DNA of 64,000 nt. Origin: a virus. Taxonomy: Duplodnaviria; Caudoviricetes. The stretch spans positions 47,626-111,625 of IMG/VR virus record IMGVR_UViG_3300031992_004562. The stretch is one strand, 5' to 3'. The position numbers and the translations under genes were made by a program. Under the pieces are notes generated by a model, which saw nothing but the letters and a program-made list of their open reading frames with translations, was not told the DNA's origin and made no database searches. Positions 25,884 through 57,360 of the stretch are shown in pieces (position 1 is the first letter of the stretch; every line of letters begins with the position of its first letter).

Positions 25884-25920
25884 AAACATTTTTGGGTTAC
25901 TATGTTATAATTAATAAATA
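25884..25920 (+). promoter_or_regulatory. Tandem middle (AAAC-N18-TATAAT) and late (AATAAATA) promoter motifs upstream of suppressor tRNA
   Basis: AAAC 25884-87, TATAAT 25906-11, AATAAATA 25913-20. Confidence 0.55.
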
Positions 25921-25930
25921 TTAAAAATAT

Positions 25931-26003
25931 TGCCCCATTGCATAATGGCAGTGCGCATGACTCTAAATCATGGTCAGTCTCGGTTCGATTCCGAGTGGGG
26001 CTG
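25931..26003 (+). tRNA. Amber suppressor tRNA (anticodon CUA), probably Gln-charged; CCA not encoded
   Basis: Cloverleaf: GCCCCA/TGGGGC acceptor, GCAT/GTGC D-arm, CATGA-CTCTAAA-TCATG anticodon arm, CTCGG-TTCGATT-CCGAG T-arm, G73. Confidence 0.93.
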
Positions 26004-26052
26004 CAAATAAAACAGATAAATTTTTATATTTATCTGTTTTAATTTTTAATAA

Positions 26053-26358
26053 ATGCAATTAACAAAAGAAAATATAGATACATATATTGGAGAAATATTT
26101 AGAAATCGTGGATATATGTCAACATCATCACAAAAAAATTCTCCATGGGGCAAAAGATGGAATGAATGGGAATTGTTAATTCATATTACGGGTGACACGC
26201 AATATATAGATATTAATAAGGTATTTACACCTGACAAGATAGATTGTGAAGAACAAAATGAATTATTACTTCCACGAAATACTTTACTTCGTTTAGATAG
26301 TTATAAAATAATGCGAAATAAGGAAAAAACTTATTTGCTTGAGATGTCTATAATTTAA
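26053..26358 (+). pseudogene. C-terminal fragment of a VIP2/Alt-like ADP-ribosyltransferase
   Basis: GYMSTS and EQNELLLPRNT motifs present; N-terminal Arg motif absent; in-frame TAA TAA just upstream. Confidence 0.6.
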
Positions 26359-26375
26359 AACAAAGTTTAATTTTA

Positions 26376-26741
26376 ATGATAACTTTTGAATATAATGGAA
26401 AAATTTATAAACCTTCAAATCTTGAAAATAAATTGAAAAAGTTAGGTATTACAATAAATGATGTAAAGATTATTGATGATACTAAAACAAATGCAGAAAA
26501 AGAAAGAGAAGAAAGAAGCCAACAAATTTCTAATAATGAAGAAACTGTTGATGTTTATTGGGATAATAGATGTAAAGGCTGGTTTCTCGTAGATAGAAGA
26601 TTTCCATATTCAACAGATTGGGGAATAAGATTTTTTCAAGAAATTGAAAATGGAAGATATAAATTAGTTCAACATGATGTAAATAAAAATAATTTATATG
26701 AGTTTTTTGAAGAAAATTTTAAAAAGGTTATAGCTATTTGA
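26376..26741 (+). CDS. Hypothetical protein
   Basis: 121 aa ORF. Confidence 0.7.
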   Translation: MITFEYNGKIYKPSNLENKLKKLGITINDVKIIDDTKTNAEKEREERSQQISNNEETVDVYWDNRCKGWFLVDRRFPYSTDWGIRFFQEIENGRYKLVQHDVNKNNLYEFFEENFKKVIAI

Positions 26742-26791
26742 AGCAAATAAACTTTTTAATAATAAATAACATATAATAATTGATAATAGAA

Positions 26792-26866
26792 AATTCTTCT
26801 ATGACATCGGGATTGATTTAGATCCTTTGAGAATTGTTAAAGATTCAAAGATGCCGTAGAGAAGTT
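26792..26866 (+). ncRNA. Candidate structured 5' leader RNA (three-way junction)
   Basis: TCTATGACATC/GATGCCGTAGA outer stem enclosing GGGATT/GATCCT and TTTGA/TCAAA hairpins. Confidence 0.4.
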
Positions 26867-26889
26867 ATAAAAATAAATTTAAATGACTT

Positions 26890-27780
26890 ATGAAAAAGAC
26901 TAATTATTCAAACATTGCAGCTATTGCTGTTGACAAATCTCTCTTAAAAGAGTATCAAACTTCTTACGGAAGAACAGTTTATCTTGACAAAGATTCCGAA
27001 TTCCAAATTAAATTATTTAATCCTTATTCATTTACTGTTGGTGCTGAAATTATCATCAATGGTAAATCTCTTGGTGACACATTGATTATTAAACCTGGCC
27101 AATTAATTTGGTTAGAGCGTTATTTTAATGAAGCACGCAAATTCAGATTTGATGTTTATGAGGTTGACGCACAGGCAGAAGAAGTAAAACAAGCCATTAA
27201 AAACAATGGTGATATTGTAATAAAGTTTTATAAAGAAAAGGAACATGTAAGACGAGGTCTTGATATTTGGGCATCTAATGCACCAGTATATAATGGGTAT
27301 AATATTAATGGTACTACATATACTAATGGAATACCAGATATTTGTAAAAATATGACATTTAGTGCAACTGATATGGTTAACACTACATATACAAATAATG
27401 TTCCAGATGGTGCTCTTAGATGTGAACTTTCTGCATCAAGTTGTAATTATTCAAATTCACAACCAATTTCCCAACCTATAAGTAAAGGATTTGGTAATTT
27501 AAATTTAAATAAATTGCGTAGTGCTACAATGGATAGTGCTACAATGGAAACTGGCCGAGTAGAAAAAGGTGGTTATTCTGATCAAAGATTTATGACAGTA
27601 GATATTGATTTAGAATCTTGGCCATTTGTAACTGAAGAAATTAAGTTATTGCCTAAATCTCAAAAACCAGTTTATAAAGAGGACTTGGAAAAATTATATT
27701 GCCCACAATGCGGTCGTAAAGTTAAAACAAAATTTAAATATTGTCCATTCTGTGGTGGAAAACTTTAGGAAATATTCTAA
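26890..27780 (+). CDS. Hypothetical protein with C-terminal double zinc ribbon (ends 27768 if TAG is read as stop)
   Basis: CPQCG..CPFCGG; TAG followed by GAA ATA TTC TAA. Confidence 0.8.
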
Positions 27781-27831
27781 AAATATTTAAAATATTATAA
27801 ACAAAAATAGAGGCGGGTAATAAAATTATCA

Positions 27832-27875
27832 GCTTCTATTTTTCTATTTAAGATAAAAGTATTAATTTTGTAACG
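27832..27875 (+). promoter_or_regulatory. Early promoter motif copy, overlapping the upstream terminator hairpin
   Basis: GCTTCTATTTTTCTATTTAAGATAAAAGTATTAATTTTGTAACG. Confidence 0.7.
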
Positions 27876-27893
27876 AAATTAAAAGTAAAATAT

Positions 27894-28301
27894 ATGAACA
27901 AGTTACATTGTATTTATATTGATAGTGACTATCCAAGTCTTGGAAGGATGATTGAAAAGTTTGACAAAGGAATACTTCGTCCAGATGATGGTACTTTCAA
28001 TATTCCTTCTCAATTACATGGATTAAATGACGAATACTTATGGATTTTGTTGAATGGACGAATGATTCACATATTCATTGTAGATTGGGTTGACGAAGAA
28101 ACACATCAACATAGTCAATATACTAATGGAGAAGATATTGAAATCCTTAAAAGATTTGCATATGATCCTAATGCAGAATTTGCTGAAAAACTTGGTAGAT
28201 TATCATGTCTGGTAACGCAGTCTGTTATAAATCTTGATTCAATTGACAAAGAACGTGTAAAAACATTTTGGAATGACTATTATAATCATAATTTAAAATA
28301 A
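27894..28301 (+). CDS. Hypothetical protein
   Basis: First ORF after early promoter. Confidence 0.72.
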   Translation: MNKLHCIYIDSDYPSLGRMIEKFDKGILRPDDGTFNIPSQLHGLNDEYLWILLNGRMIHIFIVDWVDEETHQHSQYTNGEDIEILKRFAYDPNAEFAEKLGRLSCLVTQSVINLDSIDKERVKTFWNDYYNHNLK

Positions 28302-28308
28302 AAATAAT

Positions 28309-28593
28309 ATGGCTACAAAATTTCAAAAAGTATGTAATAAATTGAATAAGATTCTTGAGAATCGTCCTGAGAATCGTGAAGAATTTATTAATATGATCAA
28401 TGATATAATTGAAAAAGAAGTATTTAATAAGGGAGGTGATTTATATTGGGGTAGAGAATTATTCATTGATTCGAATTTTGACACTGAAGAGTGTAGAAAA
28501 AAGATACATCGAACTGATGTGATGTTTAGAGATACTAGAGATCCGGTTGAACATCCTGGAATTACACTTTGTTATAAATCAGAAGAAGCATAA
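28309..28593 (+). CDS. Hypothetical protein
   Basis: ORF in operon. Confidence 0.7.
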   Translation: MATKFQKVCNKLNKILENRPENREEFINMINDIIEKEVFNKGGDLYWGRELFIDSNFDTEECRKKIHRTDVMFRDTRDPVEHPGITLCYKSEEA

Positions 28594-28597
28594 GAAT

Positions 28598-28843
28598 ATG
28601 AAAACATTTGATTGGAAAAATGCAAAAGAGGAATTACCAAAAGAGGCATGTCATTATCCTGAGATTTGGTGTTCTCAACAAGTTTTAACGAGAAAAAAGT
28701 TTAAAACCAAAGAAGGCATTGAACGATATCATTATGAGGTTTGTATGTATAATTTTGATCATGGCGGAAGTTGGATGATTCTTAATAATCAGTTTAAATT
28801 CTATGAACCAGACGAATGGTGTGAACTTGAAATTTTTGCATAA
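28598..28843 (+). CDS. DUF551-like small protein
   Basis: MKTFDWKNAKEELP...PDEWCEL pattern; ATG at 28598. Confidence 0.55.
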   Translation: MKTFDWKNAKEELPKEACHYPEIWCSQQVLTRKKFKTKEGIERYHYEVCMYNFDHGGSWMILNNQFKFYEPDEWCELEIFA

Positions 28844-28860
28844 AAATAAAATAAACTAAT

Positions 28861-30168
28861 ATGAAAAAGGAAACATTTGACGAAGTTAAAAAATCTGGTA
28901 GATTGATTTATCAATATATTAGAGGTTCTCATGCATATGGACTTAATATTGAGACTTCTGATATTGATACTGGCGGTGTGTACATCACTACAAATGATGT
29001 TCTTCTTGGACTTCGTTCTGGTTATTGCGAGCAAATTGCAGATGCAAAGAATGATAATGTTTGGTATGAAGTTGGCCGTTTCCTTGAATTGTTAATGGCA
29101 TCTAATCCAAATATGTTGGAAGCATTATTTGTTCCTGAGAGATGTATTATTTACAAACATCCTGTAATGGATTATATTCTTGAGAACAAACATAAGTTTT
29201 TAACTAAAAAGGCATTTAATGCATTGGTTGGCTATTCAATTCAACAAATTGCCAAGGCCCGTGGTCTTAATAAGAAAATTGTTAAGCCGGTTAAGGTACG
29301 TAAAACACCTATTGATTTTTGCTATACCTTTAAAAATCAAGGTTCTGAGTCCGTAATGGAATTTTTGAATCGTCATGGTCTTAAACAAATCTATTGCGGT
29401 CTTGTGCATGTAGATAATATGGATCAGGCCTATGCAGCCTTTTATGACTGGGAACAACATATTCGTATGGAATGGAAAACCGCCGAGGAATTTGCAGATT
29501 TTCTTGTAGACGTAGTAATTAATGATAAAGAAAGTAAATTCATTGATAGCATTAAAGAAATGAATTATGACTTATGGTTCCAATTTATGCCACATATCAA
29601 ACATTGGACTGACGCTCAATACATTAGTGATGCTAGAGAACAATGGATTCGAAGGTATAATGAAATCAAACCCAAAGGCTATCATGGTATTCAAAAAGAA
29701 GATGGTTCTTCTAATGATGTACATCTTGATAGTGTAGTTAAAGGCGAAAAACCATTATTCCATCTTTTGTACAACAAAAATGGCTATGCATCTCATTGTC
29801 GAGAATATAAAGATTATAAAGACTGGGAGAAAAATCGTAACCAAGCACGTTATGAATCTAATCTTGATAAGAACTATGATTCTAAAAACATTATGCATTG
29901 TATTCGTCTTATTCAGATGGGCATTGAACTTGCAAAAACAGGTGAGCTTAATGTTGATAGAAGTGTAATGGGTGATAGAGAATTTCTGCTTGATGTTAGA
30001 AATCACAAATATGAATATGATTATTTGATTGATTACTGCGAACAGAAAAAAGCAGAAATGGATGAAGCCATTAAAACTACATCTCTTCCTGATGAAATTG
30101 ATAGGGAATTCGTAAATGAATTGCTATTAAGAGTACGAAAAGTATTTGATTATGCAGAAAATCGATAA
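28861..30168 (+). CDS. RlaP/YcgL-like nucleotidyltransferase (Pol-beta superfamily)
   Basis: RGSHAYGLNIETSDIDTGGVY, NPNMLEAL, YDSKNIMHCIRL. Confidence 0.88.
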   Translation: MKKETFDEVKKSGRLIYQYIRGSHAYGLNIETSDIDTGGVYITTNDVLLGLRSGYCEQIADAKNDNVWYEVGRFLELLMASNPNMLEALFVPERCIIYKHPVMDYILENKHKFLTKKAFNALVGYSIQQIAKARGLNKKIVKPVKVRKTPIDFCYTFKNQGSESVMEFLNRHGLKQIYCGLVHVDNMDQAYAAFYDWEQHIRMEWKTAEEFADFLVDVVINDKESKFIDSIKEMNYDLWFQFMPHIKHWTDAQYISDAREQWIRRYNEIKPKGYHGIQKEDGSSNDVHLDSVVKGEKPLFHLLYNKNGYASHCREYKDYKDWEKNRNQARYESNLDKNYDSKNIMHCIRLIQMGIELAKTGELNVDRSVMGDREFLLDVRNHKYEYDYLIDYCEQKKAEMDEAIKTTSLPDEIDREFVNELLLRVRKVFDYAENR

Positions 30169-30189
30169 GATTAATTTCTTATCGATTTT

Positions 30190-30981
30190 TTATTTCATTA
30201 AAACTGGTCTTACAAAAACACCATGTTCTCTTGCTATTGTATCAATACGTATTCTATTATCTTTTTCAATTTGCATACAATAATATAACCAATCAAACGC
30301 TTCAGGATATATATAACTTGTCATATAATATCCATAATTTAAATTTGTTAAGTTTACATTAATTGAATTTTCATTCTAAAGATACCCATGTATTGGAAAT
30401 ATTATTTCATTTCCATTTATTTTAGAGGTTAATTTACAAACATATAAATTTAAAACACCATTGTATGTATAATGAAAAGATTTTATTGTATTGGCTAATA
30501 ACTCTTCATATTGATCTATAGTTGGTACACAAATATTTACATGATATTTTTTATATAAATTGGAATTATATGCTGGGTCATCGCATAATTCTAATTTCAT
30601 TAATTTATCATCTTTATTATATTTAATATAATGATCTATAATATTTCTATTATTAATAGTTCGTTTTTCTAAAAATTTATACTATGTTGTTATTTTAGGT
30701 TTTAATTCACCAAATGCATAATAATCTCCATACCAATCAGCAGCTATTTCTAAATTATTAGGATTAACACCAAGATTATATTTTGACCACAACGTTTTAG
30801 ATGGAAGACCTAAATCGACAAAATTTTTCATTAACTCTATTTTATCATTGATGACATCATTTACATCTATAACATCATTACTCTAAGATATAGAATTATT
30901 ATCTTCCATATCTTGATAATCATCAAGTGCCAACTAAATACCTCTATTGACTGCCTCTAATATTTGTTTGTAATTTTGCAT
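30190..30981 (-). CDS. Leader A + DUF1566/FISUMP-like protein, code 15
   Basis: MQNYKQILEAVNRGI(Q)LALDDYQD..VDLGLPSKTLW..YYAFGE..GVFVRPV; 263 aa. Confidence 0.87.
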
Positions 30982-32438
30982 TATCTTAAAGTGTTGAATG
31001 ATTTTGCATAAACATTATATCCAAACATATATGCACAATTTGATGACGCATTAAATATTTCAAAAGGATTATTATAATTATCAATCACTATATCATTTGT
31101 AAGATTGATAGATGTATTACAGTTATTTAATATTGTAATATTTTTTACTGTGTTTATAGTGTTATTAAGTGTTAAATTATTTGATGAATTTATATATAAT
31201 TCATTAATATCATTAATATAAGTCGTAGCTGCAGCATTAATATTTATATTATTATCATTATTAATATACAAATTATTTAAAACAACACTATTTCCACTAA
31301 TATGAATATTATTATCATTATTTATTAGTGCATTTTTCATTACTGTAACAAGGCTGTCTGCATAAATAGTATTTTTATTTCCAATAATATTATTATTAAA
31401 CTATAATAATGGTGGATCTGCGTTTGTTTTTGTTCTTTTAATAAATATTGAACAATCATAACCAATATAATTATTTGATATTTCTCCACGACTAATAGCA
31501 TTATTTGAATAAAAAATTGGCATACATTTTGTTATATATGGGTTGGTTTTAATTATATTATTATAATAATCAACATTATTAAATGTTAAACGGAAACTAT
31601 CACCAGGATGTTTATATGTTAAATTACAAAAATCATATGGCGCTTCATTTCCACTACTATCTTTTAATAGTGTAATCTTTATTTCATATTTGGCGCCATT
31701 TTGAACTATATCATATGTTCCATAAACATTTAATGAATTTCCACTATGATCATACATATTATATAATTTACCATTAAATGTTGATGTATCATTTGCTTTA
31801 ACTAATAAACTTAATGAATTATAACTTAATGGACCACTAAAATTAAATCCAGGCATTGCCATACAACCATTAGTGTCTGTAGGTTCTGATTTATAATAAT
31901 CAGTAATTAAATAAAATTTATTTGGAATAAATGGTTTAGCATTTAATATCTATTTTAATGTTCCAACTGATGTATTTAACGCATCATATAATTTATTAAC
32001 ACTGCTATCTAACCCACCAATATGTTCATTAATATCATTAATTGACGCATTGAATAAATCACGTGTAGTATAATGTGTAAGAATTTCTGATAAATTATAG
32101 TTTTTAACATTTAACTATCTATATGTTGTTCCAGGAATAATATTTGTAGATATATTAGAAACAACAATATCTTCATTTGTATCTTTATCAACCAATTTAT
32201 AGTCTGGATATGGGCTTACTGAATATGTTGACCATGCTATAGATCCAATATTTGTACTTATATCAGGATCAATATTAACAGCAACTGGGAATCCAGAATA
32301 GACATACTTTCTTGCAATAATACTAGTATCATTATATTTACGTTCGACCTCATAATATAATGAAGTTAAATCTGTTGTTGGCGAAATATTAATACCACTG
32401 GCATCAATAAGTTGTAAACTTTTTGCGGTTGTTTGCAT
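30981..32438 (-). CDS. Putative tail fibre/structural protein with Asn-rich C-terminus, code 15
   Basis: Three ORF fragments in one frame joined through TAGs; paralog of 39336..40736. Confidence 0.72.
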
Positions 32439-32518
32439 AATTATAAAATTTAATCAATTTATTTCTATATTATTTATTTTTATTGAAACTTTTTATCATT
32501 TAAAGATATAATATTAGA

Positions 32519-32737
32519 ATGAAGAAATATCATGCACATAGAATAGATAAATGGATCTATGAATATAGAGGATTTAGAATTGAATGTGTGGGTTATTATA
32601 ATCCAGATCATAAAATTGCATGGGAAGCAGTTGACAAAGATGGATATGGATTTGCGCATGCATTTACATTAAAAGAATGTAAAAAGTGGGTAGATTATGA
32701 AATAGAAAAAAATCAAGAAAATAATGAAGAAAATTAA
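32519..32737 (+). CDS. Hypothetical protein
   Basis: ORF after AAAC-N17-TATAAT. Confidence 0.7.
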   Translation: MKKYHAHRIDKWIYEYRGFRIECVGYYNPDHKIAWEAVDKDGYGFAHAFTLKECKKWVDYEIEKNQENNEEN

Positions 32738-32780
32738 CTTCTATTTTTCTTATTAAAATAAAAATATTATTTTTGTAACA
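32737..32780 (+). promoter_or_regulatory. Early promoter motif copy
   Basis: ACTTCTATTTTTCTTATTAAAATAAAAATATTATTTTTGTAACA. Confidence 0.7.
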
Positions 32781-32800
32781 AATTTAAAAATTGAAATTAT

Positions 32801-34690
32801 ATGAATACACAACTTATCAAATTATTTAATGTAGCATTAGTAGAGAATGAAAAAATGTCTATGTCTCAATTTAAAGAGATTAATCAGCTTGCAGCTCAAG
32901 TTGGATATTTTGTTCATCCTGACGTATGTAATCAATCAGTTCTTGTTTTTTTAAAAGAGCAAGTCATCAATCCTAATGCAACATTTTATAAGAGTTGGAT
33001 TGATGTAACTTCTAAAACACGTTTGGAATTGTTGTTTGATCAACTTTTTCATTATCTTACAACATATGGAACAAACTTTGCACTTGGTAATGGCTACGTT
33101 CCTAATGATGGTGATAATGATGCACCGCTTTTGGATTATAGTTTATTTAAAACTATTATGCCAATCTCTCGTGAAGAACTTTATGATAAGTGTCTTGGTA
33201 TGCTTACATCAGGTGTGGCTCTTAAGAAAGAAACAATGAGAGCTTGTGCAGACTTTGTTATTGAAGAAGTTCATAATGGTGCATTAATCAACGTTGATGA
33301 AATTAAGAATCGTGAGGCATTGGTTTATATTTGTACTAGCCTTAATATTTGGCCATCTAATGCAATGAATTTGTTTAGAACACTTATGTATCTTACAACA
33401 GATGATACATTAATTGTTAATAATGATGCAACTATTAACAAGATTAAGAGAAGTTCACACCCATTTAATTTTAATAAGTTGGGTGAAAATGATTTGGTAC
33501 GTTTATCATCAATTTTCTTAAGATTTAAGAATTTATTCTTGGCATTTAAACATAATACAAATATTGATAATAAGTCTGTTATTAATAAGCTTCGTAAATT
33601 GGCAGTTACATATCATAGACCATTCATTGCAGGGTTTTGGCAAACTTTATTTTCTGAGCCAAAAATTGAAGAAGAGATTAAGCTTCATCTTGGTGAATTA
33701 ACAACTTTTAAAAAGGTTGCATTAATGCAAACATGCCTTGAGAGAATTGGTAATGTTGATAATAAAATTTATGTTATTAGAAATGGCAAAATTTTCTTCA
33801 AAGAGGGTTGTCAAGCACAAATGCCATATGTAACATATTATGTTCAAGTTTATAACATTTTAAGAGAAAGTGTTATTGAAACATTAAAAGCTAATTCTCA
33901 AAAGGAAGTAATTGTTGCAGATATTGAAACAGAAGGTGTTGAGCCTACTGTAACAACCATTAAGAAACCTAAAGTTATTAAAGTTTATAATGGTATGTCT
34001 GTAGCATTGCCAACTTCTGAAAAATCATATATTGGAAACTATCCATTTGGAACTTCATATGAACTTACAAATAATAATTTTGTAGCGTGTTATTGGAGAA
34101 ATGAGTGGGGAACACATGATTATGATTTATCTTTGACAGATGATCGTGGCGAAAAAATTGGCTGGAATTCAAGGTATTACAATGGTGCACAAAATATCAT
34201 TTATTCTGGTGATATGACTGAAGCACAACCTGAGGCATGTGAGGTTATCAAAATTTTTGATCCAACAGATTTTATGGCAGTAGTAAAAATCAACCAATAT
34301 AGAGGCAATGCAAAATCTAAATTTGAATTATTGTTTGGGCAAACAACTAAGGAATATGAAGCATATCAAAACTTCATGGTAGATCCAAATGAAATTAAAT
34401 TTAGAGCCACTATTGAGCATGAAGATAAGAAAGAACTTCAAATCGCATTAATTGCTAATAATAAAGTTACTCTTATGGAAGTGCATAGTGGAAATTCCAT
34501 TGTAAGCCGAGCATTTGGCAAGTCAAAAGAGTATATGAATGCGCTTGCAGATAAAACAAGATATTTTGTAGATGCAGCAGAACTTTTAAAAGAGGCTGGG
34601 TATGAAATTGTAGATGAAACATATACAGGTGATGTAGATGTTGACTTTGCAAATTTGGAAAAAGATTCATTGATTAAGCTTATGGCTTAA
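32801..34690 (+). CDS. Large hypothetical protein with TerD-like C-terminal region
   Basis: W..DYDLS..IGWN..YSGDMT pattern; no TAG. Confidence 0.65.
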   Translation: MNTQLIKLFNVALVENEKMSMSQFKEINQLAAQVGYFVHPDVCNQSVLVFLKEQVINPNATFYKSWIDVTSKTRLELLFDQLFHYLTTYGTNFALGNGYVPNDGDNDAPLLDYSLFKTIMPISREELYDKCLGMLTSGVALKKETMRACADFVIEEVHNGALINVDEIKNREALVYICTSLNIWPSNAMNLFRTLMYLTTDDTLIVNNDATINKIKRSSHPFNFNKLGENDLVRLSSIFLRFKNLFLAFKHNTNIDNKSVINKLRKLAVTYHRPFIAGFWQTLFSEPKIEEEIKLHLGELTTFKKVALMQTCLERIGNVDNKIYVIRNGKIFFKEGCQAQMPYVTYYVQVYNILRESVIETLKANSQKEVIVADIETEGVEPTVTTIKKPKVIKVYNGMSVALPTSEKSYIGNYPFGTSYELTNNNFVACYWRNEWGTHDYDLSLTDDRGEKIGWNSRYYNGAQNIIYSGDMTEAQPEACEVIKIFDPTDFMAVVKINQYRGNAKSKFELLFGQTTKEYEAYQNFMVDPNEIKFRATIEHEDKKELQIALIANNKVTLMEVHSGNSIVSRAFGKSKEYMNALADKTRYFVDAAELLKEAGYEIVDETYTGDVDVDFANLEKDSLIKLMA

Positions 34691-34734
34691 GCCTTGGACC
34701 TTGTACAATCAGAATTAGAAAATGAATAGTATGG

Positions 34735-34768
34735 AGAAACTTCGATGAGATATCGAGGTTTCTTTTTT
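34735..34768 (+). terminator. Intrinsic terminator
   Basis: AGAAACTTCGAT/ATCGAGGTTTCT followed by T run. Confidence 0.7.
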
Positions 34769-34784
34769 AATAAATATATTGAAT

Positions 34785-35783
34785 ATGAAAAGATTTAATA
34801 AGCAAATATTAGAAGCAATCAATAGGGGTGTTTAGTTGGCACTTGATGATTTTGATTATAATGAAGATATAACAAAATCTAAAACTGATATAATTAATAC
34901 TGAAGAATATGCATTTAGTATTATAAACACATTATATAAAAAACTAACATCTGAAATATTAACTGTTTAGGAATTAGACCGTTTGGTACAATATTATCAA
35001 ATAACAAAGCAAAAATATAAAGTTTATTCTAGACAAGAGCTAAAAAGAATTATTGATTATGTAATTGGTGTTTATCAATCTGGTGATTTTGTTAAAGGAC
35101 TTAATCCTGATATAAAAACATTAAATTGGATAGATGTTTCTGAAGTAAAATATATGGATGAACTATTTAAAGGATTATAGTTTACATCAGATATTTCTGA
35201 ATGGGATGTTTCTAATGTTTTAACAATGTCAAATATGTTTGAAAACGCTACATTCACTTCAGACATTTCAAAATGGAATGTTTCTAAAGTTACAACAATG
35301 TATGGAATGTTTTCAGCATGTAATTTTGAAAGTGAATTATCTGATTGGGATGTTTCCCATGTAACTGATATGGGACATATGTTTTTCATTTCACCATTTA
35401 ATGGAGATATTTCAAAATGGAATGTTAAAAATGTAACTAATATGCCATATATGTTTTATGCAGCTGTATATTTTAATCAACCAATTGGAAAATGGAATAT
35501 GTCCAAAGTTAATAATATTGATGGTATGTTTAATATGGCTAGTAGTTTTAATTAGGATATTTCTAAATGGAATATTTCTAATGTTAAATCTTCTGAGCTT
35601 GCGTTTAGCAAATCTGGATTTGATTAGGATTTATCTAAATGGGATGGCGGAAATTTATCAATGACTACATTTAAAGGCAGTAAGATTTCTTCAAATCATT
35701 TACCAAAGTTTTGGCAAGAAAATGAAATGAATTTAGATGGCAAAAGAATATTAAATACATATTTACCAAAAGATTGGAATTAA
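34785..35783 (+). CDS. Leader A + DUF285/BspA-like LRR protein, code 15
   Basis: MKRFNKQILEAINRGV(Q)LALDDFD; FNGDISKWNVKNV repeats; FN(TAG)DISKW. Confidence 0.88.
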
Positions 35784-36502
35784 TGAAAAATTATAATAAA
35801 ATATTAGAAGCCGTTCATCGTGGTATTTAGTTAGCACTCGATGATTTTGAAGATATAGAAGATAATAATTCTATATTTTAGAGTAATGATGTCATTGATA
35901 CAGATGATTATATAGATGATAGAGTTACATATAATAAATTATTAGAAAAGTTTTTTGATTAGATGAGTGATAGCTTAGTTATAAAAGTATCTAAAGATGA
36001 TTTAAAAAAACTTGCAAATTTATCCAAAAATCTTGGTATGAAATTTAAAGTTGAAGATAATAGATTTTTACAAGATATAATTAAAACTGTTTGTAGAATA
36101 GATAAGTCTGCAAATTTAAATTGGATTGACACATCAGAAGTAACCAATTTTGAAAATCTATTTAATATGACACTATTTCATGGTGATATTTCAGAATGGG
36201 ATACACATAATGTCAAAAACATGTATTCATGCTTTGCTTATTCTCAATTCAATGGCGATATATCAAGATGGGATGTATCAAATGTTGAAAATATGAATTG
36301 GATGTTTTAGGGTTCTTGGTTTAACAAACCAATTGAAAATTGGAATGTAGCTAAAGTAAAAAGTATGAATGGAATGTTTAGTGAATCGCATTTTAATTAG
36401 AATATATCTAAATGGAATGTTGCAAATTGTAAAGGTTATATAAAATTTAATAATAAAAGCACATTAAAAAAATCTAATATACCACCAAAATTTAGAAAAT
36501 GA
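35783..36502 (+). CDS. Leader A + DUF285/BspA-like LRR protein, code 15
   Basis: MKNYNKILEAVHRGI(Q)LALDDFED; FNGDISRWDVSNV; TAATG coupling to previous gene. Confidence 0.88.
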
Positions 36503-36504
36503 TT

Positions 36505-36909: not shown

Positions 36910-36943
36910 AATAAGTTCTAGATTCACTTCTAGAACTTATTTT
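36908..36943. terminator. Bidirectional terminator
   Basis: AAAATAAGTTCTAGA/TCTAGAACTTATTTT inverted repeat. Confidence 0.75.
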
Positions 36944-37007
36944 TCTTATATAGTAGTTTATATGTTTTTAACTTTAAAATGCACCAGATTTAACAAGATT
37001 AACTTGA

Positions 37008-46765: not shown

Positions 46766-46864
46766 AATAAACTTATATATTTATGTATTTTATTATTTAT
46801 TTTTAATTAATACTTAAGCATAATAAAACTAATAGACCCTTATTGCATATAATAAATAGAAAAA

Positions 46865-48049: not shown

Positions 48050-48108
48050 TTCTTGTTAAATATGCTAAAAATGAAAATAAATAAGAAAAAATTAATTGAA
48101 AAATTAGT

Positions 48109-49167
48109 ATGAATAATAAAATTGATGAATCTGAATTGGCTGCATATGCACAATCAGTTGAAGGTGATCAAACACCAGAGATTTCAATGCCTATAGAAGA
48201 TGCACCAAAAGTAGAAGAGAAAAAAGAACCTACAGTTCAAGAACAACGTAATCTTGCTGCTCAACGCCAACAAGAAGTTGTAAAAACAACTGCAGAACTT
48301 CATGCAGAACGTGAAGAAGAAATTCGTAAAGAATCTGCCAATCGTGGAATTGGTAATGCAATTGTTCCAGTTGAATCCCTTCCATCTAAAGGTTTATTCT
48401 ACCCAGAAGGAACAAAAATTTGGATTAGTTCAGCATCACTTGGTGATATTAAGCGTTGGTCATCAATGAACGAGGATGATATTCAAGATGTAATGGAAAA
48501 AATGGAAGCAATTCTTGAAAGTTGTTGTTCTATTAATTTTGGTCCTAATTCTACAAAACGTGCTCGTTGGAAAGATCTTCTTGATTTGGATAGACTTTAT
48601 ATTTTATTTGCAATTCATGATTGGACATTTATTGGTGGCAAAAATGAAGTTAAAATTAAAGTTACAGAAAAAGAAGATATTACAATGAAAAAGGAAAATG
48701 TAAAATTCATTGAATTCCCAGAGAAATTAATGAAATTTTACAATGAAGAAAAACGTTGTTTCTCATTCCCAGTTGAAAATAAAGCCTTATTTAAGGATAC
48801 AGATGGAATGATGGATATTTATATGCCAACTATTGGTGTAAGTGATTGGTTAAGAGATTATATGATTGCTGCAAGTCAAAGACGTGATAATATTGATCAA
48901 GATTTCTTATCATACGCATCATTATTAATTCCAGATTGGCGTGACCTTACAACAGTTGATGCATATTATGATTTAATTGATAGAACTGTTGATTGGGGAA
49001 CATATGAATGGTCATTAATTTCTAAGGTGCGTGATATTATTGTAGCTGCAGCTGGAAATCCAACAATTGTTTATGTTGATAAGGGAGGCGTTGAACGAGA
49101 GGTTCCGCTTTACTTTCGAAACGGACTTAAGTCGCTCTTTCAGGTTGAACTCAAGATCGACCTTTAA
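48109..49167 (+). CDS. Baseplate hub/tail assembly protein, T4 gp26-like
   Basis: LPSKGLFYPEG..DRLYILFAI pattern. Confidence 0.6.
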   Translation: MNNKIDESELAAYAQSVEGDQTPEISMPIEDAPKVEEKKEPTVQEQRNLAAQRQQEVVKTTAELHAEREEEIRKESANRGIGNAIVPVESLPSKGLFYPEGTKIWISSASLGDIKRWSSMNEDDIQDVMEKMEAILESCCSINFGPNSTKRARWKDLLDLDRLYILFAIHDWTFIGGKNEVKIKVTEKEDITMKKENVKFIEFPEKLMKFYNEEKRCFSFPVENKALFKDTDGMMDIYMPTIGVSDWLRDYMIAASQRRDNIDQDFLSYASLLIPDWRDLTTVDAYYDLIDRTVDWGTYEWSLISKVRDIIVAAAGNPTIVYVDKGGVEREVPLYFRNGLKSLFQVELKIDL

Positions 49168-49618
49168 TGATCCAACACAAAGAGAAATAACTCTTAGTGA
49201 ATGTTTTGAAAAAATATATGTTGATAGTGCATTATATCCTACAACATATGCATGTTTAAGTTCTAATAATATAACATTTAGAACAAATGGAATTAAAAAG
49301 ACATTGCTCGGTTGTAGTGCAGAAGTATTAAATCCATGTACAGGTTTTAACCTTACACATGATACCTTATTAAATATGATATATTATTTAGTTAAGGAAG
49401 GACATTTTACAATGACAGATTTAATACATACAGATTGGTTTTATGCTGATTTATTTTACGAAAAACTCTATGATGAAATTGAGAAGAAACGTAAACATGA
49501 TGAAGAAGAAAATAAACGCCAAGAACAAGAAATGGCAAACTATCAACAAATGCAAGACTACCAATCAAAGATGATGGAAAATATGAGTCATTATATGCCA
49601 TCCGGCAGTTTTGATTAA
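49073..49618 (+). CDS. gp51-like assembly protein; possibly a frameshift extension of the previous gene
   Basis: +1 frame ORF overlapping about 95 nt; start uncertain. Confidence 0.55.
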   Translation: MLIREALNERFRFTFETDLSRSFRLNSRSTFNDPTQREITLSECFEKIYVDSALYPTTYACLSSNNITFRTNGIKKTLLGCSAEVLNPCTGFNLTHDTLLNMIYYLVKEGHFTMTDLIHTDWFYADLFYEKLYDEIEKKRKHDEEENKRQEQEMANYQQMQDYQSKMMENMSHYMPSGSFD

Positions 49619-49704
49619 TTGAAATGCTACCATATTTTTGGTAGCATTTCATATTTAAACTTTTATGTGAGATCATTATAAAATATTTAAATATTTTAAT
49701 TTAT

Positions 49705-50097
49705 ATGGTATACGATATTGATTATATTGCAAATGATGGAAATAGATATACATTATTTGATATTGATATTTGGCTAAAACCAAGAGAATGTAAATATGAA
49801 AATGGCAAGTGGATTAAAGATGATGATTGGCATTCAGAATTACAAAAATCTGTAAATAGTCGTTGGATAGCTAAATTTGTTTTTGAACAAATCCATACTA
49901 GAGAAGAGTTAACTGCATTTATCAAAGATTGCGAAAAAATAGATTGGCTACGTGGATATTTACATGAAGAACACACAAATTATTGGTTACCAATGGATCA
50001 AGCTGAATATGCATTATATCATAATCATTTACCAGATATCAAAAAAGTAATTTTTGATTTTGCTGAAAAGTGGAATCTTTCAATAAATGAAGACTAA
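49705..50097 (+). CDS. Hypothetical protein
   Basis: 130 aa ORF. Confidence 0.7.
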   Translation: MVYDIDYIANDGNRYTLFDIDIWLKPRECKYENGKWIKDDDWHSELQKSVNSRWIAKFVFEQIHTREELTAFIKDCEKIDWLRGYLHEEHTNYWLPMDQAEYALYHNHLPDIKKVIFDFAEKWNLSINED

Positions 50098-50115
50098 AAA
50101 TAATTATATAATAAA

Positions 50116-50541
50116 ATGAGTACAAATGAAGATGTAAAACCTGAGGAACTTGACATTACATTACCATCTGAAATTTTAAATTAGGTTGATGAAGATGATG
50201 ATAGTGATATGCCTCTTCCAGAAACTGCAGAATATAAAGAAGTTCGTGGAAATGCAGAAGATAATAGATTGTTAGCACCAACAATTAAATTCTATAAATT
50301 ATTTGAAGATTGTATGGGAAAATTGCCATATGCATCAATTTTGAAAAATGGAAATAATGATCAGATTAAATTAGTTGATTTAATAAGATTTGTTGAATCT
50401 AAAAATTCAACTGGAATCACTATTAAAGAAATGAATACTGTTATTTCATTTGTGGCAACTGCACCACTTGAATATGTAAGACCATTAATGGAAATTATTG
50501 ATTCAAAGGAAAGACAACAAGAACTTTGGTCATTAAAATAA
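50116..50541 (+). CDS. Hypothetical protein, code 15
   Basis: ATG 50116, one TAG, joins ORF 50209. Confidence 0.72.
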
Positions 50542-50624
50542 TTTAATTTAAATTAAATTTTGTCATAAAACTTTAAAAAATAGAGGACTTATAAAGCCCT
50601 CTATTTAATTTTATATTCTAATAA

Positions 50625-52283
50625 TTATGAGAATATTAAATATTTTATTCTAATTGGTACGTCATTTGGATTATAAACTAACATACTTGTTGGAAGATTC
50701 ATTGTATTTGATTGTGGATCATCATCTTTTCCAATAATCATATATGAATTACCAACTTTATCCCATAACATATTATCATTTACATATTGCATATATCTAA
50801 ATAAACCAATAATATCATCTTTCTTTGAATAGTATGTATTACCCATCCATGCTAAATCATCAATAACATCAATATTTGGTCTATATGGATCTAAATAATC
50901 TGTATCAATATCATTAACAGCTTTTTGCTCTTCTGTTTCTTCATTCCACCCATTAGGTAAATTACTTATAGAACTTTCAACTGATGCAGAACCAAATTCA
51001 GGATTCTATTCTCTAAAATCATTTTCTTCTTTTGTTAATGTTGCATTAGATAAAACTCCTACAACTTTTGGCATATATTGTTTTTCTTTAGTTAATTGAT
51101 ATAATTTAACTTTTGATTTAATATGATTAATCCATAATGATGAATATTCATAATCATCAGTATTTGTTGGCCAATCTGGAACAAGCACTATTCCTCTAAA
51201 TGCACCATTAGGATATTTCATTAATGGAATTCTTAAATGTTTATCTTCTTTTAACCAATAGAAATCTTTATAGTATTCATCTAAATCTTTAAATTTTAAT
51301 TTAATATCATTAATAATATTTCTTATTGCTTCGATATTGTTTATATCATATTCATTAAATAAATCAGCATCATATACAGTGTTCTAAATTGCAATATTAG
51401 CTTTAGTTAACCAATACATTTCTTCTTCCTCTGTTGTAGCATTAATAGCATTATGCAAATACTCAATCATTTTATCAAATGAATCAAGGTCTTTTACTGC
51501 ATCTTCATAATTATAAATTAACCATGAATATAAATCACAATTTATATTATATGTTGTTGGATTATATTCTTCACAATTTGGAACTGGATGATACTTATCA
51601 ATTAAATCATACATATATTGTTTTAATCCAGTAATGCTTTTCTTAAATGGTGAGTATGGGTAATCTTCTGATTGGAAATCAATATCTATACGAAGATTAT
51701 TAATATAATAAAAATATCCTTCTTTTTGAGAAATAAATCTTAAATATTGATATGTCTATTTGTCAAAATCATCAAATTGCTCTATTAAATCTGTAGAAAT
51801 TAAAATATTATGTTTCTTTAATTGCTCATTAATTTGCTTAACAAATGATGTATGGCCATCTGCTTCAGTATGAATATGAAATTTCTTTGGTGCAAAATTA
51901 TCATAAACAATATCAAAATCACAATTTAAATAATATTCATATCCTTCTGTTTCTTTAACATGTTTTGGAATAACATAATAATATTCTGCTCTTGCAAAAC
52001 CATATTCTTGTCCTTGAAGAACATAACATGAATGTGGTTGAAGAATTCTAGTTTCTGAATTATATTGTGTTAACCCAGGAACATGTATATTTGTTAAATC
52101 AATATTTGCAATAGGATTACCATTTGAGTCGGTAATTGAACCGGCTGCATTACCAGTTGAATTTACAGTAATATCAAATGATGTATCTTCTTCATCAATT
52201 GCCGAATTACATGTGTATCCTGCAGATACAACATTATTTGATTTAGAATATAAACTATAAAATAAATTTTTATTTGATGACAT
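50625..52283 (-). CDS. Putative structural protein, code 15
   Basis: Four ORFs in one frame joined by three TAG; 552 aa; AATAAATA upstream. Confidence 0.75.
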
Positions 52284-52321
52284 ATTATTTAAATTAAATT
52301 ATTCTTTTTATATTTATTAAA

Positions 52322-55300
52322 TTAGCCCATTTCAACACTGCCAAACAATGCTCTTGGTGATGAATCAAACTTAACAGTAATTTCTTTATTTTGATTAGAC
52401 CAATTATCTAATGCAGATGCTATTGCATTTGCAATATATTGGCTAAATTCTTGCATATTTTCTTTGCGTTTTTCTTCTTTTAACTTTTGTTTTTCTTCAT
52501 TAGTAGCCATTGTTTCGGTATTTGTTACAACCTTCTATACAGTATCTTTAACTTTTTCGGTTGCTTCAACAATTGCAGCTGCACCTTTAGATTTAATAAT
52601 ATCAGATACTGAACGCATTGCATTATATTTGTTCATTAGTCTTAATGAATTATTTAATGTATTATTAAGTTTTTCGATATTATCTGACATATCTCTAAAA
52701 TTAGAAGATATTGATTGAATTGCTTCTGTACGCTTTTCTTCTTTTTCAATTAATTCAACATCAAGCATTTTTAAAGCATGAGCTAAATCACGTATCTAAT
52801 TAGGAGTAGTTGCCAAATATGGTTTAATATGGCCTAAACCTCTAGCCGTATGATACATTGTCCATTCAAAATGATGTGAATTATGTAAGGCTTTATTAAA
52901 CGAAGTAAGTGTCATAAATTTAGTTATTTTTCTTAATCCTGATACTATATGTTTAATATCTTCACTAAATGATTTTCCAATTTTTGTAACATCGAAATCA
53001 TCACTTAATAAGTGTTTAGTACCTTTTACAAAACTAATCATTGCCTATTCAAATGCCTATGCATTTCCTGAATAAGTTGTTGTTCTTCTAAATAATCTGC
53101 CTGAACGTACTGAATATCCATTAATTTTACTAAAGTCTGTATCATTTAAGAAACCAACAATTATAAGTAATCCATCAACTAAATTTGCAACATCATCTTT
53201 AAAAAATGAACTAAATTTTGTTATATCAAATCCTTCTTGTAATAATTCTTTAACACCATTTTTAAAGAATCTCATTGCATTTCTAAATCGCATAGAATTT
53301 TTATTTACTGTTCTAAAGAATTTCTTTGTTTCTGGATGTAAGAAATCAGCAATCTATTGAAGACCATTTAAAACATCTCCAATTTGAGTTGGGAAGTTTT
53401 CATTAAGAAGAGATTTTTTATCAAATTCGAATACTGATAATAAATGTTTCATACTCTTTTTGAATCTTCTTAATCCAATTTTAAATAATCTTGCATTTTT
53501 ATCTATGCCATTAAAATCTTTATTTAAAAATTCTACAATTTTTGATCCACCCTGCGTTAATAAATCTAATTTCTTTATTAAACTATCGTCCATTTGAACT
53601 TTAAATTTATCTGCATATTTAAACACTTTAAATAAGTGTTTCATACTCTTTCCAAAGGTTTTAAAGATTTTTCTAATTTTCTTATGTTTAATATCTTTTT
53701 CTGCCAATTCAATTAATGGATCAAACATTGCAGTAATCATATTTGCAATACCTCTGCTTGCATCTGTCATTTTTTCAATATTTACATCATATGCTTTATC
53801 ACCAATCTAGACTTTGCCTGCAGCTAATTGCATAATAGGATCAATTAAATTACAAACACCTGTAATTATTTTATTTAAAGGCCCACTTAATTTTTTCATA
53901 TTTTTTCTAGCCTTTTTATCAATCTTATCAAAACCTTTTCCTAATTCAGTTAAAAATATGCTAAATGATTTTGATAAAGTAACAGCAGCCTTTTTAAAAT
54001 CTGATGGTTTTAATTTAATATAATGTATAGGATTTCCATTTTTATCCCATTTATCTGCAATTTTCATTGATGCCATTTTTTGAACAACATCTACAAATTT
54101 ACTTATTGATTCTATTACTGGACGAATTGATTTACCTATTGCTGCTACTTTAATTGCTGATTTAATTCCAAAGTCATCTAATTTATCAATAATAGTTCTA
54201 AGGCAATCAATCATTCCACCATCTTCTATTATTCTACTTAATGCAGATTTAATATCTGCTTCAGACATACTTTTAACATCTTTTAAAAGTTTAGTAAATA
54301 ATAATAATGCACCAGTTATACTTGCAATCATAATTGATATAGTTTCAACCATTGCGAATCCTGCCCAGAAGAATGGGTCTAATGCTAATGGTGATAATAT
54401 ATGTGCTAAACCAATCATACCAACTATCATTGCTGCTGTAACAGCTACACCCTTAAGAACACCTTTAAGAGATATACCATCCATTTGTTTTAAGAATTTA
54501 GCATATAACATCATTGCAAGTGAAACACCAGCAATCATTAATACAATACCAGCAACACCAATTAAACCATTGATTACTGTTGGTTTTGTAAGTCCTTTTG
54601 AAAGTAACTTAAATAACAATATTGATAATAATGTAAATGCTACTGTTATAGCACCGCCAATTACAATTTCTTTAGCATGTTTTCCAACTGAAATATTAAT
54701 AAGCATTGCCAATGACATTCCAAGGAATAATAATATAACCATGCCTACACCTTCAAGACCATTTTTTCCAGTGGTTTTAAATTTCTTAGAACCTAAAACA
54801 TACATAATTCCAAGTGATAATGCAACTATACCAATTAATAGTCCAGCTCCAATTGCAATTGATTTAACATCAAAGGTTTTTGCAATTAATATCAATAATG
54901 CTAATGTAAGTGTTAATCCACCAATTAACATCATTATCTATTTTGCACCAACAAGTGCCTAATTTGCTTCACGTTTAAATTTCTTAGAACCTAAAACATA
55001 TATAATTCCAAGAGATAATGCAACTATTCCTAATAACATTGCACCACCACCAACCAAATCTTGCCATTTATTCAATTTAAATAATAATACTAATGCAACT
55101 AAACTAAGTGTTAATGTGCCAATCATTGATGAAATTGATAATGCAGCTTTTGCAGCAGCCTATGCTTTAGCTGCACCACTTGGACCTCCAGCCAATTTAT
55201 CAATTAGTGATTGGAAAAATCCTCCAATAGCTGCACCGGTTTTTGGGCCAAGCATTTTTCCCATAAACCATAACTACATTATATCTTTTGGCTTAATTTG

Positions 55301-55882
55301 CAATATTGCAGCCATCATCAATCCTAAATTTGTTAATCGTTTAAGAAATGTTTTATTTTGGACTTTTGAATTTGGTGGAATTACATTAATTGCATCTACC
55401 ATTTGTACTAAAAAGCCTTTAAGCATTCCTTTAGCAAGTATTCCATAAAACTTACCAAGTCGTCTACCTAAAAACCAAGCTTTTATAGGATTAAGTGATA
55501 AAATGCTTTTTATGAAATTATCTGACATGCTCATTATTATGCCATGTATCTATGCAAACGCATTAATAGCATTTCCAACGGCCTATAATGTTTCTTTATC
55601 AATTTTAAATGATTTAATGGCAGCGCCTAAAATTTTTATACCATTTGCAACTGTTTCATATTTATCTTTACCAATTTTAGCTAATGGCGGAATAGCAGTA
55701 GAAAGCACTTTAAGAGAATTACCAAGAACTTCTATATTCTTGGCATCCGCCTATATAATACCAGTACTACTAGGAACATTTGATAACCCAGCATTTTTAG
55801 CGGCTTTTTTATTTTCTTTTATTACACCGTCTAATAAATCCAAGATACTGGCTAAATATTCATCTGAACTTTTCTTCGCCAT
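52322..55882 (-). CDS. Tape measure-like protein with multi-pass hydrophobic region, code 15
   Basis: ATG 55882; seven ORF fragments share one frame (1186 aa); A/G/L-rich helices and TM segments. Confidence 0.72.
54776..55030. repeat. Near-identical ~57 bp direct repeat, 198 bp period (66 aa), inside tape measure-like gene
   Basis: TTTAAATTTCTTAGAACCTAAAACATA(C/T)ATAATTCCAAG(T/A)GATAATGCAACTAT at 54776 and 54974. Confidence 0.8.
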
Positions 55883-55996
55883 ATAAAATAAAGCACTTTA
55901 ATTCTTTTATTATTTATTTTCTAAAATATCACTATTCATGAAAATGATCCAGATTTAATTCTGGATCACTTAAATATTCATATGTATAATTTATTA

Positions 55997-56845
55997 TTAC
56001 ATTTTAAATTCGTTGTCTGCGAATGAAAGAATGGCCAACAAATGTAATCTAGCTATATCTTCTTTACCATAATCAGAACAAAGATATTCACAATCATCAA
56101 TATTAGAATAGAAGAAGTTTTCTGTTAATACTGCAGGAACTGTTGGTTTTCCATTCTTTAATGAAAATTGCTCTGTTTTATAAATAACTGTAAAGTTCTC
56201 TTCCCAGTCACGATCTCCATCAGATTTATCTGTTCTTAGTTTTACTTTAGCTCCACTATTTTTATAAAGTTTTTCTGCTTCATCATAAAAACAATCTGCT
56301 AATTTATCGGAAATATTATTTCCCTTTGTAGTATATGCTGACCAACCTTTAGCTGCATCCCAAGCAGAACCTTTACCATTTGCATTGGCATGAACTGAAA
56401 TAAAGATTCCTTTCTTTCCAGATGCTTTTATTTTATTCCATGCTCTAGTTGCTCTAGTTGTTAAACTTACATCAATATCTTTATCCCTTTCTTCATCAGT
56501 TGTAATGAATACTTCAATTCCATATTCATAAAGCATTTTAGTAAGCATATTACAAATTTCACGATTAAATTTATATTCATAAAAATCTAATGCTGGTTCT
56601 ACTTTGCATGCAGAATAAGGAGAACGTTTTCCTGGTGTAGAAGATGCGTGTCCTGGATCAAGTACAACAATTAAACCAGGATATTGTTTTTTAGTAGATA
56701 AAGGGGTTGATTCCATATTAGTATTTTCTATTTTTTCTTCTGGTTTTTTCTTAACGACAACTGTTTTCTTTTTTATCACAGTTGTAGTTTTTTTAATAAC
56801 AACTGGTTCTTTTTGTTTTGGCTTAAAAATATCTAATAATCCCAT
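55997..56845 (-). CDS. N-acetylmuramoyl-L-alanine amidase (Amidase_3) endolysin
   Basis: VVLDPGH, YE, ISVHANA, VLTENFF; TATAAATA upstream. Confidence 0.92.
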   Translation of the reverse strand: MGLLDIFKPKQKEPVVIKKTTTVIKKKTVVVKKKPEEKIENTNMESTPLSTKKQYPGLIVVLDPGHASSTPGKRSPYSACKVEPALDFYEYKFNREICNMLTKMLYEYGIEVFITTDEERDKDIDVSLTTRATRAWNKIKASGKKGIFISVHANANGKGSAWDAAKGWSAYTTKGNNISDKLADCFYDEAEKLYKNSGAKVKLRTDKSDGDRDWEENFTVIYKTEQFSLKNGKPTVPAVLTENFFYSNIDDCEYLCSDYGKEDIARLHLLAILSFADNEFKM

Positions 56846-56961
56846 ATAATTTTTCAATTAATTTTTTATATTTATAATGAAAAAACTTTTATACACGTGC
56901 GAATTAAAATATTTACCATTGGAAAAATATGACGATAAATAAAACAAATATAAACAAATAA

Positions 56962-57360
56962 ATGGAAATTGATACATCAATAGAAGGCATCAAAGTTAAT
57001 AAAGAAGGAAAAGAATATGTTTCAAATCCCTTTTTGTTTAAAGAGATAATGAAATCAAAAGAATAGGATGAATTAACTGCTGATGCTGTTCAAATGCTAT
57101 TATTAATGATTGAAAACATTTCTGCAAAGAAAACTTATAAAGATAAAGAAGTAGAAAAAGATTGTAAGCAATAGGCAATGCTTGATTGTTTACAATATTG
57201 GCGTGGGTTTGATCCTGAAAAATCAAATAATCCATTTGCATATTTTACGTCTGTTATTACCAATGGGTTGGCAAAAGGGTGGAATGCATTTTATCCACAA
57301 AATAAACAAGTGCCAGGTGCAATATTTACCAGTATTGATAATAACATTTATTCAATTTAA
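56962..57360 (+). CDS. Late-transcription sigma factor, T4 gp55-like, code 15 (two TAG)
   Basis: YVSN..FDPEKSNNPFAYFT hallmark; TAG at 57064 and 57172. Confidence 0.85.

Follow-up and report, generated by a model that had tools for sequence, protein, structure and literature searches.

An amber suppressor tRNA and a TAG-containing late sigma factor as parts of a candidate self-reinforcing loop in a Lak-like megaphage

The window analyzed here is the final 64 kb (G+C ~27%) of one 111,625-bp virus contig, IMG/VR record IMGVR_UViG_3300031992_004562, and carries an amber suppressor tRNA with anticodon CUA together with a late sigma factor of the bacteriophage T4 gp55 family that is itself interrupted by in-frame TAG codons. 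Both genes are preceded by a middle-type and a late-type promoter box, and the interpretation that we favor, with moderate confidence, is that these boxes would wire the code switch and late transcription into a self-reinforcing loop. The two loci comprise the following features.

25884-25887 and 25906-25911, + strand: middle box of the tRNA gene, AAAC, N18, TATAAT (rank 24 of 223,130 positions with the middle-box matrix)
25913-25920, + strand: late box of the tRNA gene, AATAAATA, with an A-rich extension to 25926 (14.1 bits, rank 28 of 223,190 positions with the late-box matrix)
25931-26004, + strand: tRNA with anticodon CUA (CTA), found by ARAGORN and by Rfam RF00005 (51 bits)
56883-56886 and 56905-56910, + strand: middle box of the sigma gene, AAAC, N18, TAAAAT (rank 18 of 223,130)
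56934-56941, + strand: late box of the sigma gene, GATAAATA, with an extension to 56947 (15.9 bits, rank 22 of 223,190)
56962-57360, + strand: gp55-family late sigma gene, 132 aa with TAG read as glutamine

The core ATAAATA of the tRNA late box starts 17 nt before the 5′ end of the tRNA, and the core of the sigma late box starts 27 nt before the ATG. A preliminary description of this DNA had named the tRNA, the TAG codons of the sigma gene and a middle plus a late motif at both genes; its coordinates are exact, and the ranks listed above bear out the pairing of motifs at each gene.

What identifies the second gene as a late sigma factor, and what do its TAG codons do to it? The open reading frame (ORF) matches phrog_234, annotated as late sigma transcription factor (E=1e-11), and a profile built from the protein and eight homologues matches T4 gp55 in PDB 7d7c_F over residues 4-128 (E=7e-22). 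Its sole Pfam signal is Sigma70_r2 at 15.7 bits, under the cutoff, such that the 132-aa protein has a region-2-like domain only and lacks region 4. The TAG codons are codon 35 (57064-57066) and codon 71 (57172-57174), and both precede the NNPFAYFT motif at residues 89-96; in the alignment to 7d7c the first lies just ahead of the region-2-like domain and the second within it. Read from these positions, translation in the host code would stop after 34 or 70 residues and leave only a stub that lacks the DNA-binding part, and the claim of the preliminary description that the sigma factor cannot be completed under the host code holds.

The contig is, judged from its matches, a fragment of a Lak-like, TAG-recoded megaphage, because the region of the gp55-like gene is 67-69% identical in DNA to Prevotella Lak megaphages, the sigma protein is 53.8% identical to its Lak homologues, and a 60-residue fragment of the sigma factor has an identical copy on a record from a 498-kb contig. 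CheckV places the completeness of the 111.6-kb contig at ~22%. When TAG is read as sense, 123 ORFs are obtained, arranged in blocks that are either TAG-free or TAG-rich, with 256 in-frame TAGs across the TAG-bearing genes. Columns 35, 44 and 71 of the gp55 homologues, where TAG occurs, align with CAA or CAG glutamine codons; the presence of TAG in one homologue and CAA/CAG in others therefore supports the reading of TAG as glutamine. Across the TAG-bearing genes of the whole contig, TAG:CAA/CAG is 53:72 in the first 50 codons and 203:477 elsewhere (odds ratio 1.73, p=0.007), an enrichment that rests on naive ORF starts, may be inflated by them, and is not used as evidence here.

The tRNA-CUA is the only tRNA in the whole contig. 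Its fold leaves U1 unpaired with U72 and carries discriminator G73, which are presumably glutamine identity marks, and its similarity to Lak tRNAs is ambiguous. Directly 3′ of the tRNA lies a terminator:

26008-26041, + strand: hairpin followed by a U-run (−13.9 kcal mol−1, z=−7.6)

Equivalent hairpins are found 3′ of the tRNA in the related loci L129 and L166, making three loci with the window. The tRNA has its own promoters and its own terminator and is therefore a self-contained one-gene unit.

A further question is whether TAG codons in gp55 are peculiar to this phage. Relatives of the gp55-like gene, L090-L099, were retrieved with the 60 residues that follow TAG71 as the query, and the positions of TAG in these and in the Lak genomes are as follows.

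Window and L090: TAG at 35 and 71
L094 (98% identical): TAG at 35
L091 and L093: TAG at 35
L095: TAG at 5, 28, 35 and 44
L096: TAG at 44
L097: TAG at 35 and 44
L098 (5′ end cut): TAG at about 28
L099: TAG at about 18, 35, 47 and 70
Lak A, B and C: TAG at 20, 33 and 46

Every TAG-recoded gp55 homologue inspected has at least one TAG before the core. Conservation of TAG in gp55 had been proposed as a check in the preliminary description; TAG occurs in gp55 of Lak A, B and C and of every close recoded relative, with no TAG-free gp55 seen among them. TAG35 is the conserved codon, kept in six of the seven homologues that have glutamine at this position, and TAG71 is recent, with CAA/CAG in the 98% identical relative. 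HMMER searching over 1.84 billion representatives returned four full-length close homologues, and the 90% clusters of two of these mix full-length members with members of 79-90 residues, which fits one gene called with and without TAG read-through. The gp55 relatives found in IMG/VR were set aside: their identity does not exceed 48%, and, as standard-code genes without TAG, they are uninformative on recoded phages.

The promoter boxes belong to classes that were resolved by an unsupervised search for k-mers enriched within 120 nt upstream of ORFs. The top-enriched abundant 8-mer is AATAAATA, present in 25 of 123 upstream regions and in 69 of 3000 background windows (8.8-fold), and ACTTCTAT and GAAACTT words surfaced as well. 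The late class, ATAAATA[AT][TA]AAAA, precedes the leading gene of TAG-bearing blocks by 26-40 nt, baseplate wedge, tail-tube-like and tail-assembly-like genes being among them, and shows no information content upstream of the box, i.e. no −35 element. The early class consists of TTAAACTTCTATTTTT followed ~29 nt on by TAnnTTTG, which we take to be the Bacteroides −7 box, and is seen only before TAG-free genes. The middle class, AAAC-N17/18-TA[TA]AAT, has 36 matches, compared with 11.05 ± 3.2 in Markov controls; for 21 of these matches a gene starts no more than 75 nt downstream, and few of the genes concerned have more than one TAG. The three classes separate genes by their use of TAG, counted over the genes directly behind each box class.

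Genes behind a late box only: TAG share of glutamine codons 0.297, 17 of 21 genes with TAG
Genes behind a middle box only: TAG share 0.026 (3 of 116), 3 of 16 genes with TAG
Genes behind an early box: TAG share 0, none with TAG

Two promoter types occur together at 4071, 17148, 23541, 44275 and 46865, and in the contig at −18672 and −8441 (all window coordinates). Among these, a DNA methyltransferase gene (17148) and a 5′-3′ exonuclease gene (46865, overlapping TATAATAAATAG) have late and middle boxes, and the genes at 4071, 23541 and 44275 have late and early boxes.

Are the boxes at the tRNA and sigma genes more than chance matches in 27% G+C DNA, without function at either locus? The bare ATAAATA is found at 114 places in the contig when both strands are counted, and a generic sigma-70 scan of this AT-rich contig showed no excess over shuffles and was, together with a terminator scan, uninformative. 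A caution that TAAATA is common by chance in AT-rich DNA had accompanied the preliminary description; the extended motif and its placement meet this objection. The late-box matrix was trained on 26 sites and the middle-box matrix on 19 other sites, with the tRNA and sigma sites excluded from the late-box training, and the extended late matrix places these two sites at the ranks of 28 and 22 given above. Moreover, 33 sites reach at least 13 bits with the late-box matrix, and all but about two of these are intergenic and correctly placed. The boxes are also kept while their flanks diverge. The tRNA-CUA loci L129, L166 and L168 were found via homologues of the ADP-ribosyltransferase-like gene downstream of the tRNA, and, with the window, the tRNA bodies at the four loci are only 68-95% identical pairwise; AAAAAAC-N17/18-TATAAT is nonetheless kept at all four, and the late box at three of four, at 13.0 bits in L129 and 13.6 bits in L166, with the core at −17 or −16, and with ATAAATT in L168. 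At the sigma gene, the window, L091, L095, L096 and L097 all share AAAAA[AG]ACTTT and TTA[AC]AAT without variation, and Lak-A1 and Lak-C1 have AAAC-N18-TAAAAT at −56. The tRNA and sigma boxes thus belong to statistically real motif classes and are placed beyond chance, and an absence of function at both loci is barely credible to us.

A second alternative concerns the middle boxes specifically. Both loci face a divergent gene on the other strand that has its own late box:

25861-25879, − strand: late box ATAAATATAAAAA of the divergent gene at 25164-25889 (−), 13.9 bits, core from 25873
56863-56881, − strand: late box ATAAATATAAAAA of the divergent endolysin gene, 15.2 bits, core from 56875, 30 nt before the start

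One hypothesis is that the AAAC box is simply the T-rich flank of these divergent late promoters, read on the other strand, in which case the tRNA and sigma genes would have late promoters only, or unknown ones. The AAAAAAC runs of the window do lie 4-10 nt from the divergent late box, and T-runs are found upstream of several late boxes. However, L129 has a hairpin upstream of its tRNA and no divergent late box, and it keeps AAAAAAC-N17-TATAAT before the tRNA, which indicates that the AAAC box of the tRNA is not a mere flank of a divergent promoter. Furthermore, the spacing from AAAC to the hexamer is fixed at 17-18 nt at all nine tRNA and sigma loci, and 19 other sites with the pattern precede genes that have no divergent late box. 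A sigma gene with a late box alone could not be started, and the conserved middle box is therefore a plausible seed. For these reasons we regard the flank hypothesis as highly improbable. A + strand TTTTTATATTTAT beside both loci, considered as part of the tRNA and sigma promoters, was rejected; it is the reverse complement of the divergent minus-strand late boxes.

Which protein would read the middle box? Outside the window, at G000:C1:27726-28586 (+) (L161:1234-2094), the contig encodes another phage sigma factor, 286 aa long; it has Sigma70 region 2 (1e-13) and region 4 (r4_2, 2e-8), a sole TAG at codon 280, and an early-type box, TTTAACTTCTATTTTT ... TATATTTG, before its gene. This region 2 plus region 4 sigma is probably the reader of the AAAC-N17/18-TATAAT box. 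In the circuit that we propose, it would be made from its early box and would then read the middle boxes, and the middle program would make both tRNA-CUA and sigma mRNA, the two of which are needed for the late sigma protein, as in a feed-forward AND gate. Until tRNA-CUA is present, the sigma mRNA would yield only the 34- or 70-residue stub. Once made, the sigma factor would act at late boxes to raise the output of the tRNA, whose late box is placed for a start a few bases before the tRNA, and in this phage also the transcription of its own gene, providing positive feedback. The yield of sigma factor would scale with suppression efficiency raised to the power of the number of TAGs, because every TAG must be suppressed. 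We infer the reader of each box, the timing of the events, and a sharpening or delaying effect of the loop on the early-to-late transition.

An alternative hypothesis is that the sigma TAGs are a passive by-product of recoding, such that TAG, CAA and CAG drift once a suppressor is plentiful. The tRNA would then be in surplus from early on, the sigma TAGs would have no timing role, and the late box before the tRNA would serve only to adjust its supply to the many TAGs of late genes. The sigma gene uses TAG for 2 of its 7 glutamine codons, the ordinary share of late genes (0.30); TAG71 is recent; the positions of TAG shift among relatives (5, 28, 35, 44, 47, 70 and 71); and, among the six other protein genes that carry dual boxes, another one also has TAGs. 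All of this would be expected under drift. However, other middle-box genes shun TAG, and at their share (3 of 116 glutamine codons) two TAGs in the sigma gene would have a probability of ~0.014; the sigma gene, behind a middle box yet with late-style TAGs ahead of its DNA-binding core, is nearly alone among middle-box genes in this respect. Retention of TAG35 in six of seven homologues likewise does not favor drift, nor does the absence of any homologue with TAG after the core: TAG:CAA/CAG is 21:25 before residue 72 and 0:15 after it (Fisher p=0.001, over ten sequences that are related and thus pseudo-replicated). Finally, the dependence of the sigma factor on the tRNA holds whatever the origin of its TAGs. 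We consider the passive hypothesis rather unlikely.

The TAG share of the sigma gene, the dual boxes of other genes and the pseudo-replication of the Fisher test weigh against the self-reinforcing loop, as do several further points. The close gp55 relatives were retrieved as fragments of 33-105 residues, able to find only TAG-broken genes, and this sample is biased because it was obtained through such fragments; the Lak genomes are an unbiased sample because they were found by translated search. The tally of TAG positions leaves out the full-length representatives P0039 and P0040. Lak-A1 has two tRNA-CUA genes, found via Rfam, that lie 8-9 kb from its gp55 gene, and both boxes are absent there. 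All promoter assignments are in silico predictions. Given that the fragment holds ~22% of the genome, further suppressor tRNAs, release factors and sigma copies may lie elsewhere; within the 111.6-kb fragment no match to the release factor family PF00472 was found, and complete Lak genomes have phage release factor 2. The late box of the sigma gene also differs from relative to relative.

Window: 15.9 bits at −27
L096: 12.4 bits at −31
L097: 9.1 bits at −35
L090: 11.6 bits, GTAAATA
L091: 6.8 bits, TTAAATA (degenerate)
L095 and Lak-A1: none nearby

This box is strong only in the window and L096, and the putative autoregulation of the sigma gene is therefore variable. The L090 entry (L090:1-130) comes from a 1.1-kb JGI contig with an identical sigma ORF, whose upstream piece repeats sequence from within the gene and may be an assembly artefact. 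The preliminary description had looked to relatives for conservation of the dual motifs: the middle box is kept at 4 of 4 tRNA loci, at 5 of 5 close sigma loci and in Lak-A1 and Lak-C1, and the late box at 3 of 4 tRNA loci, whereas the late box of the sigma gene does not follow. Its wiring diagram divides along the same line. The steps in which a middle promoter would give both tRNA and sigma mRNA, and the tRNA would permit the sigma factor, are supported by the sequence, and the putative self-feedback of the sigma factor is variable; the commitment switch that it proposed, like any bistable behavior, is hypothetical.

More tentatively, we put forward as a possibility that the code change in Lak-like phages is an obligatory checkpoint within a three-tier sigma relay, in which host sigma would read the early boxes and thereby make the region 2 plus region 4 sigma. 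Selection would maintain TAG codons toward the 5′ end of gp55, and the sharpness of late turn-on would depend on how many there are.

The neighborhood of the sigma gene contains two further genes of interest.

55997-56845, − strand: endolysin of the amidase type, TAG-free, divergent from the sigma gene (phrog_435, E=1.5e-31)
57382-57960, + strand: TAG-free gene of 192 aa, 22 nt after the sigma gene and without its own promoter box

Amidase_3 was found on the endolysin homologues in L095 and L097; the amidase homologue in L091 is split into calls of 75 and 82 aa and probably carries TAGs. The window endolysin, with no TAG and a 15.2-bit late box, would be gated by the code only indirectly, via the sigma factor. 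The gene at 57382-57960 is probably co-transcribed with the sigma gene, and its synteny is held in L092, L094, L099 and Lak; no family match to its protein was found in family searches, and an atlas search was likewise unrevealing. The hydrophobic C-terminal tail of the sigma factor, IFTSIDNNIYSI (57319-57357), is conserved, with TSLDNNIHSF as its Lak counterpart, and in relatives the last residues of the syntenic downstream protein are DLNSLIFRQ. By analogy with T4 gp55 and gp33, both tails may bind the clamp. No match to the sliding clamp family PF02916 was found in the ~22%-complete fragment, and a control search was likewise without a match.

Around the tRNA, the loop of the terminator hairpin (26021-26033) reads ATAAATATAAAAA on the − strand at 13.0 bits, pointing into the tRNA, which could be chance or an antisense start. 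The gene just after the terminator, 26053-26358 (+), encodes only 101 aa, which represent the C-terminal portion of an ADP-ribosyltransferase (PF03496, E=6e-9), versions of which are 184-192 aa in relatives; an ADP-ribosyltransferase near the tRNA recalls T4 Alt and Mod, which modify RNA polymerase. The spot is variable, and in L166 (1117-2555) and L168 (1111-2561) a GIY-YIG endonuclease gene lies between the tRNA and the ADP-ribosyltransferase gene. Searches with the tRNA sequence or parts of it gave no further loci: a metagenome scan with a 17-mer of the anticodon arm returned 29 loci that are all chance matches, IMG/VR scans with the anticodon arm and with the T-arm and acceptor returned nothing or unrelated tRNA-Leu genes, and a blastn match of the tRNA region in Lak was rejected as a suppressor, being a tRNA-Leu.

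How does the proposed circuit compare with known systems? T4 transcribes its late genes from TATAAATA promoters with gp55, gp33 and a sliding clamp, gp45 (Geiduschek and Kassavetis 2010, PMC2988020; PDB 7d7c), with A at −13 in nine late promoters (PMC2988020). The phage described here resembles T4 in its small region-2-only sigma factor, its −10-type (A/T)ATAAATA box without a −35 element, and the conserved hydrophobic C-terminal tail of its sigma factor; in silico, its box lies 26-40 nt before late genes and is of the T4 late consensus type TATAAATA. It differs in that the host is of Bacteroidota type, the sigma factor has 132 aa rather than 185, and neither gp33 nor the clamp was found in the 22% fragment. 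Moreover, a sigma factor with in-frame TAGs relies on a phage tRNA, a dependency that T4 does not have. Laboratory amber mutants of T4 gene 55 grow in suppressor hosts, as is well known from conditional-lethal genetics, and there too late transcription needs a suppressor tRNA that reads a TAG in gene 55. Here, in contrast, the ambers are natural and clade-conserved, and the suppressor is phage-encoded and apparently under the same sigma factor. The Bacillus phage SPO1 provides a further parallel in its sigma relay of gp28 followed by gp33/34, since here too the late sigma factor is preceded by an early phage sigma factor, one that has regions 2 and 4, and the two have separate promoter classes; the difference is that a translational checkpoint at the tRNA would stand between the tiers here, with the pairing of sigma factors and promoters being putative.

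In gut phages that use code 15 (TAG to glutamine), stop codon recoding has been proposed to regulate late and lysis genes (Devoto 2019, PMC6784885; Borges 2021, 10.1101/2021.08.26.457843). What is shared with those phages and their proposed biology is a restriction of TAG to late and structural genes, an own tRNA-CUA, the notion that late proteins are barred before the code change, and a gp55 that is 53.8% identical to that of Lak, whereas the gate here would lie on the master regulator of transcription and the tRNA appears to have late-type feedback. Sigma factors, gp55 and promoters are not mentioned in Devoto (PMC6784885) or Borges (10.1101/2021.08.26.457843), and a literature search found no paper on an amber-locked gp55, on this middle promoter class, or linking recoding to sigma gating.

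Recoding had thus been proposed to time late and lysis genes with no concrete control point named, and here a recoded codon lies in the master regulator of late transcription. With the gate on this regulator, even TAG-free late genes such as the endolysin would therefore be code-dependent, and a single tRNA would gate the whole late program, including late genes without TAG. The general idea becomes a testable circuit of four parts, namely two promoter boxes, one tRNA and one 132-residue sigma factor, and the promoter classes defined in silico can be used for annotating Lak-like genomes.

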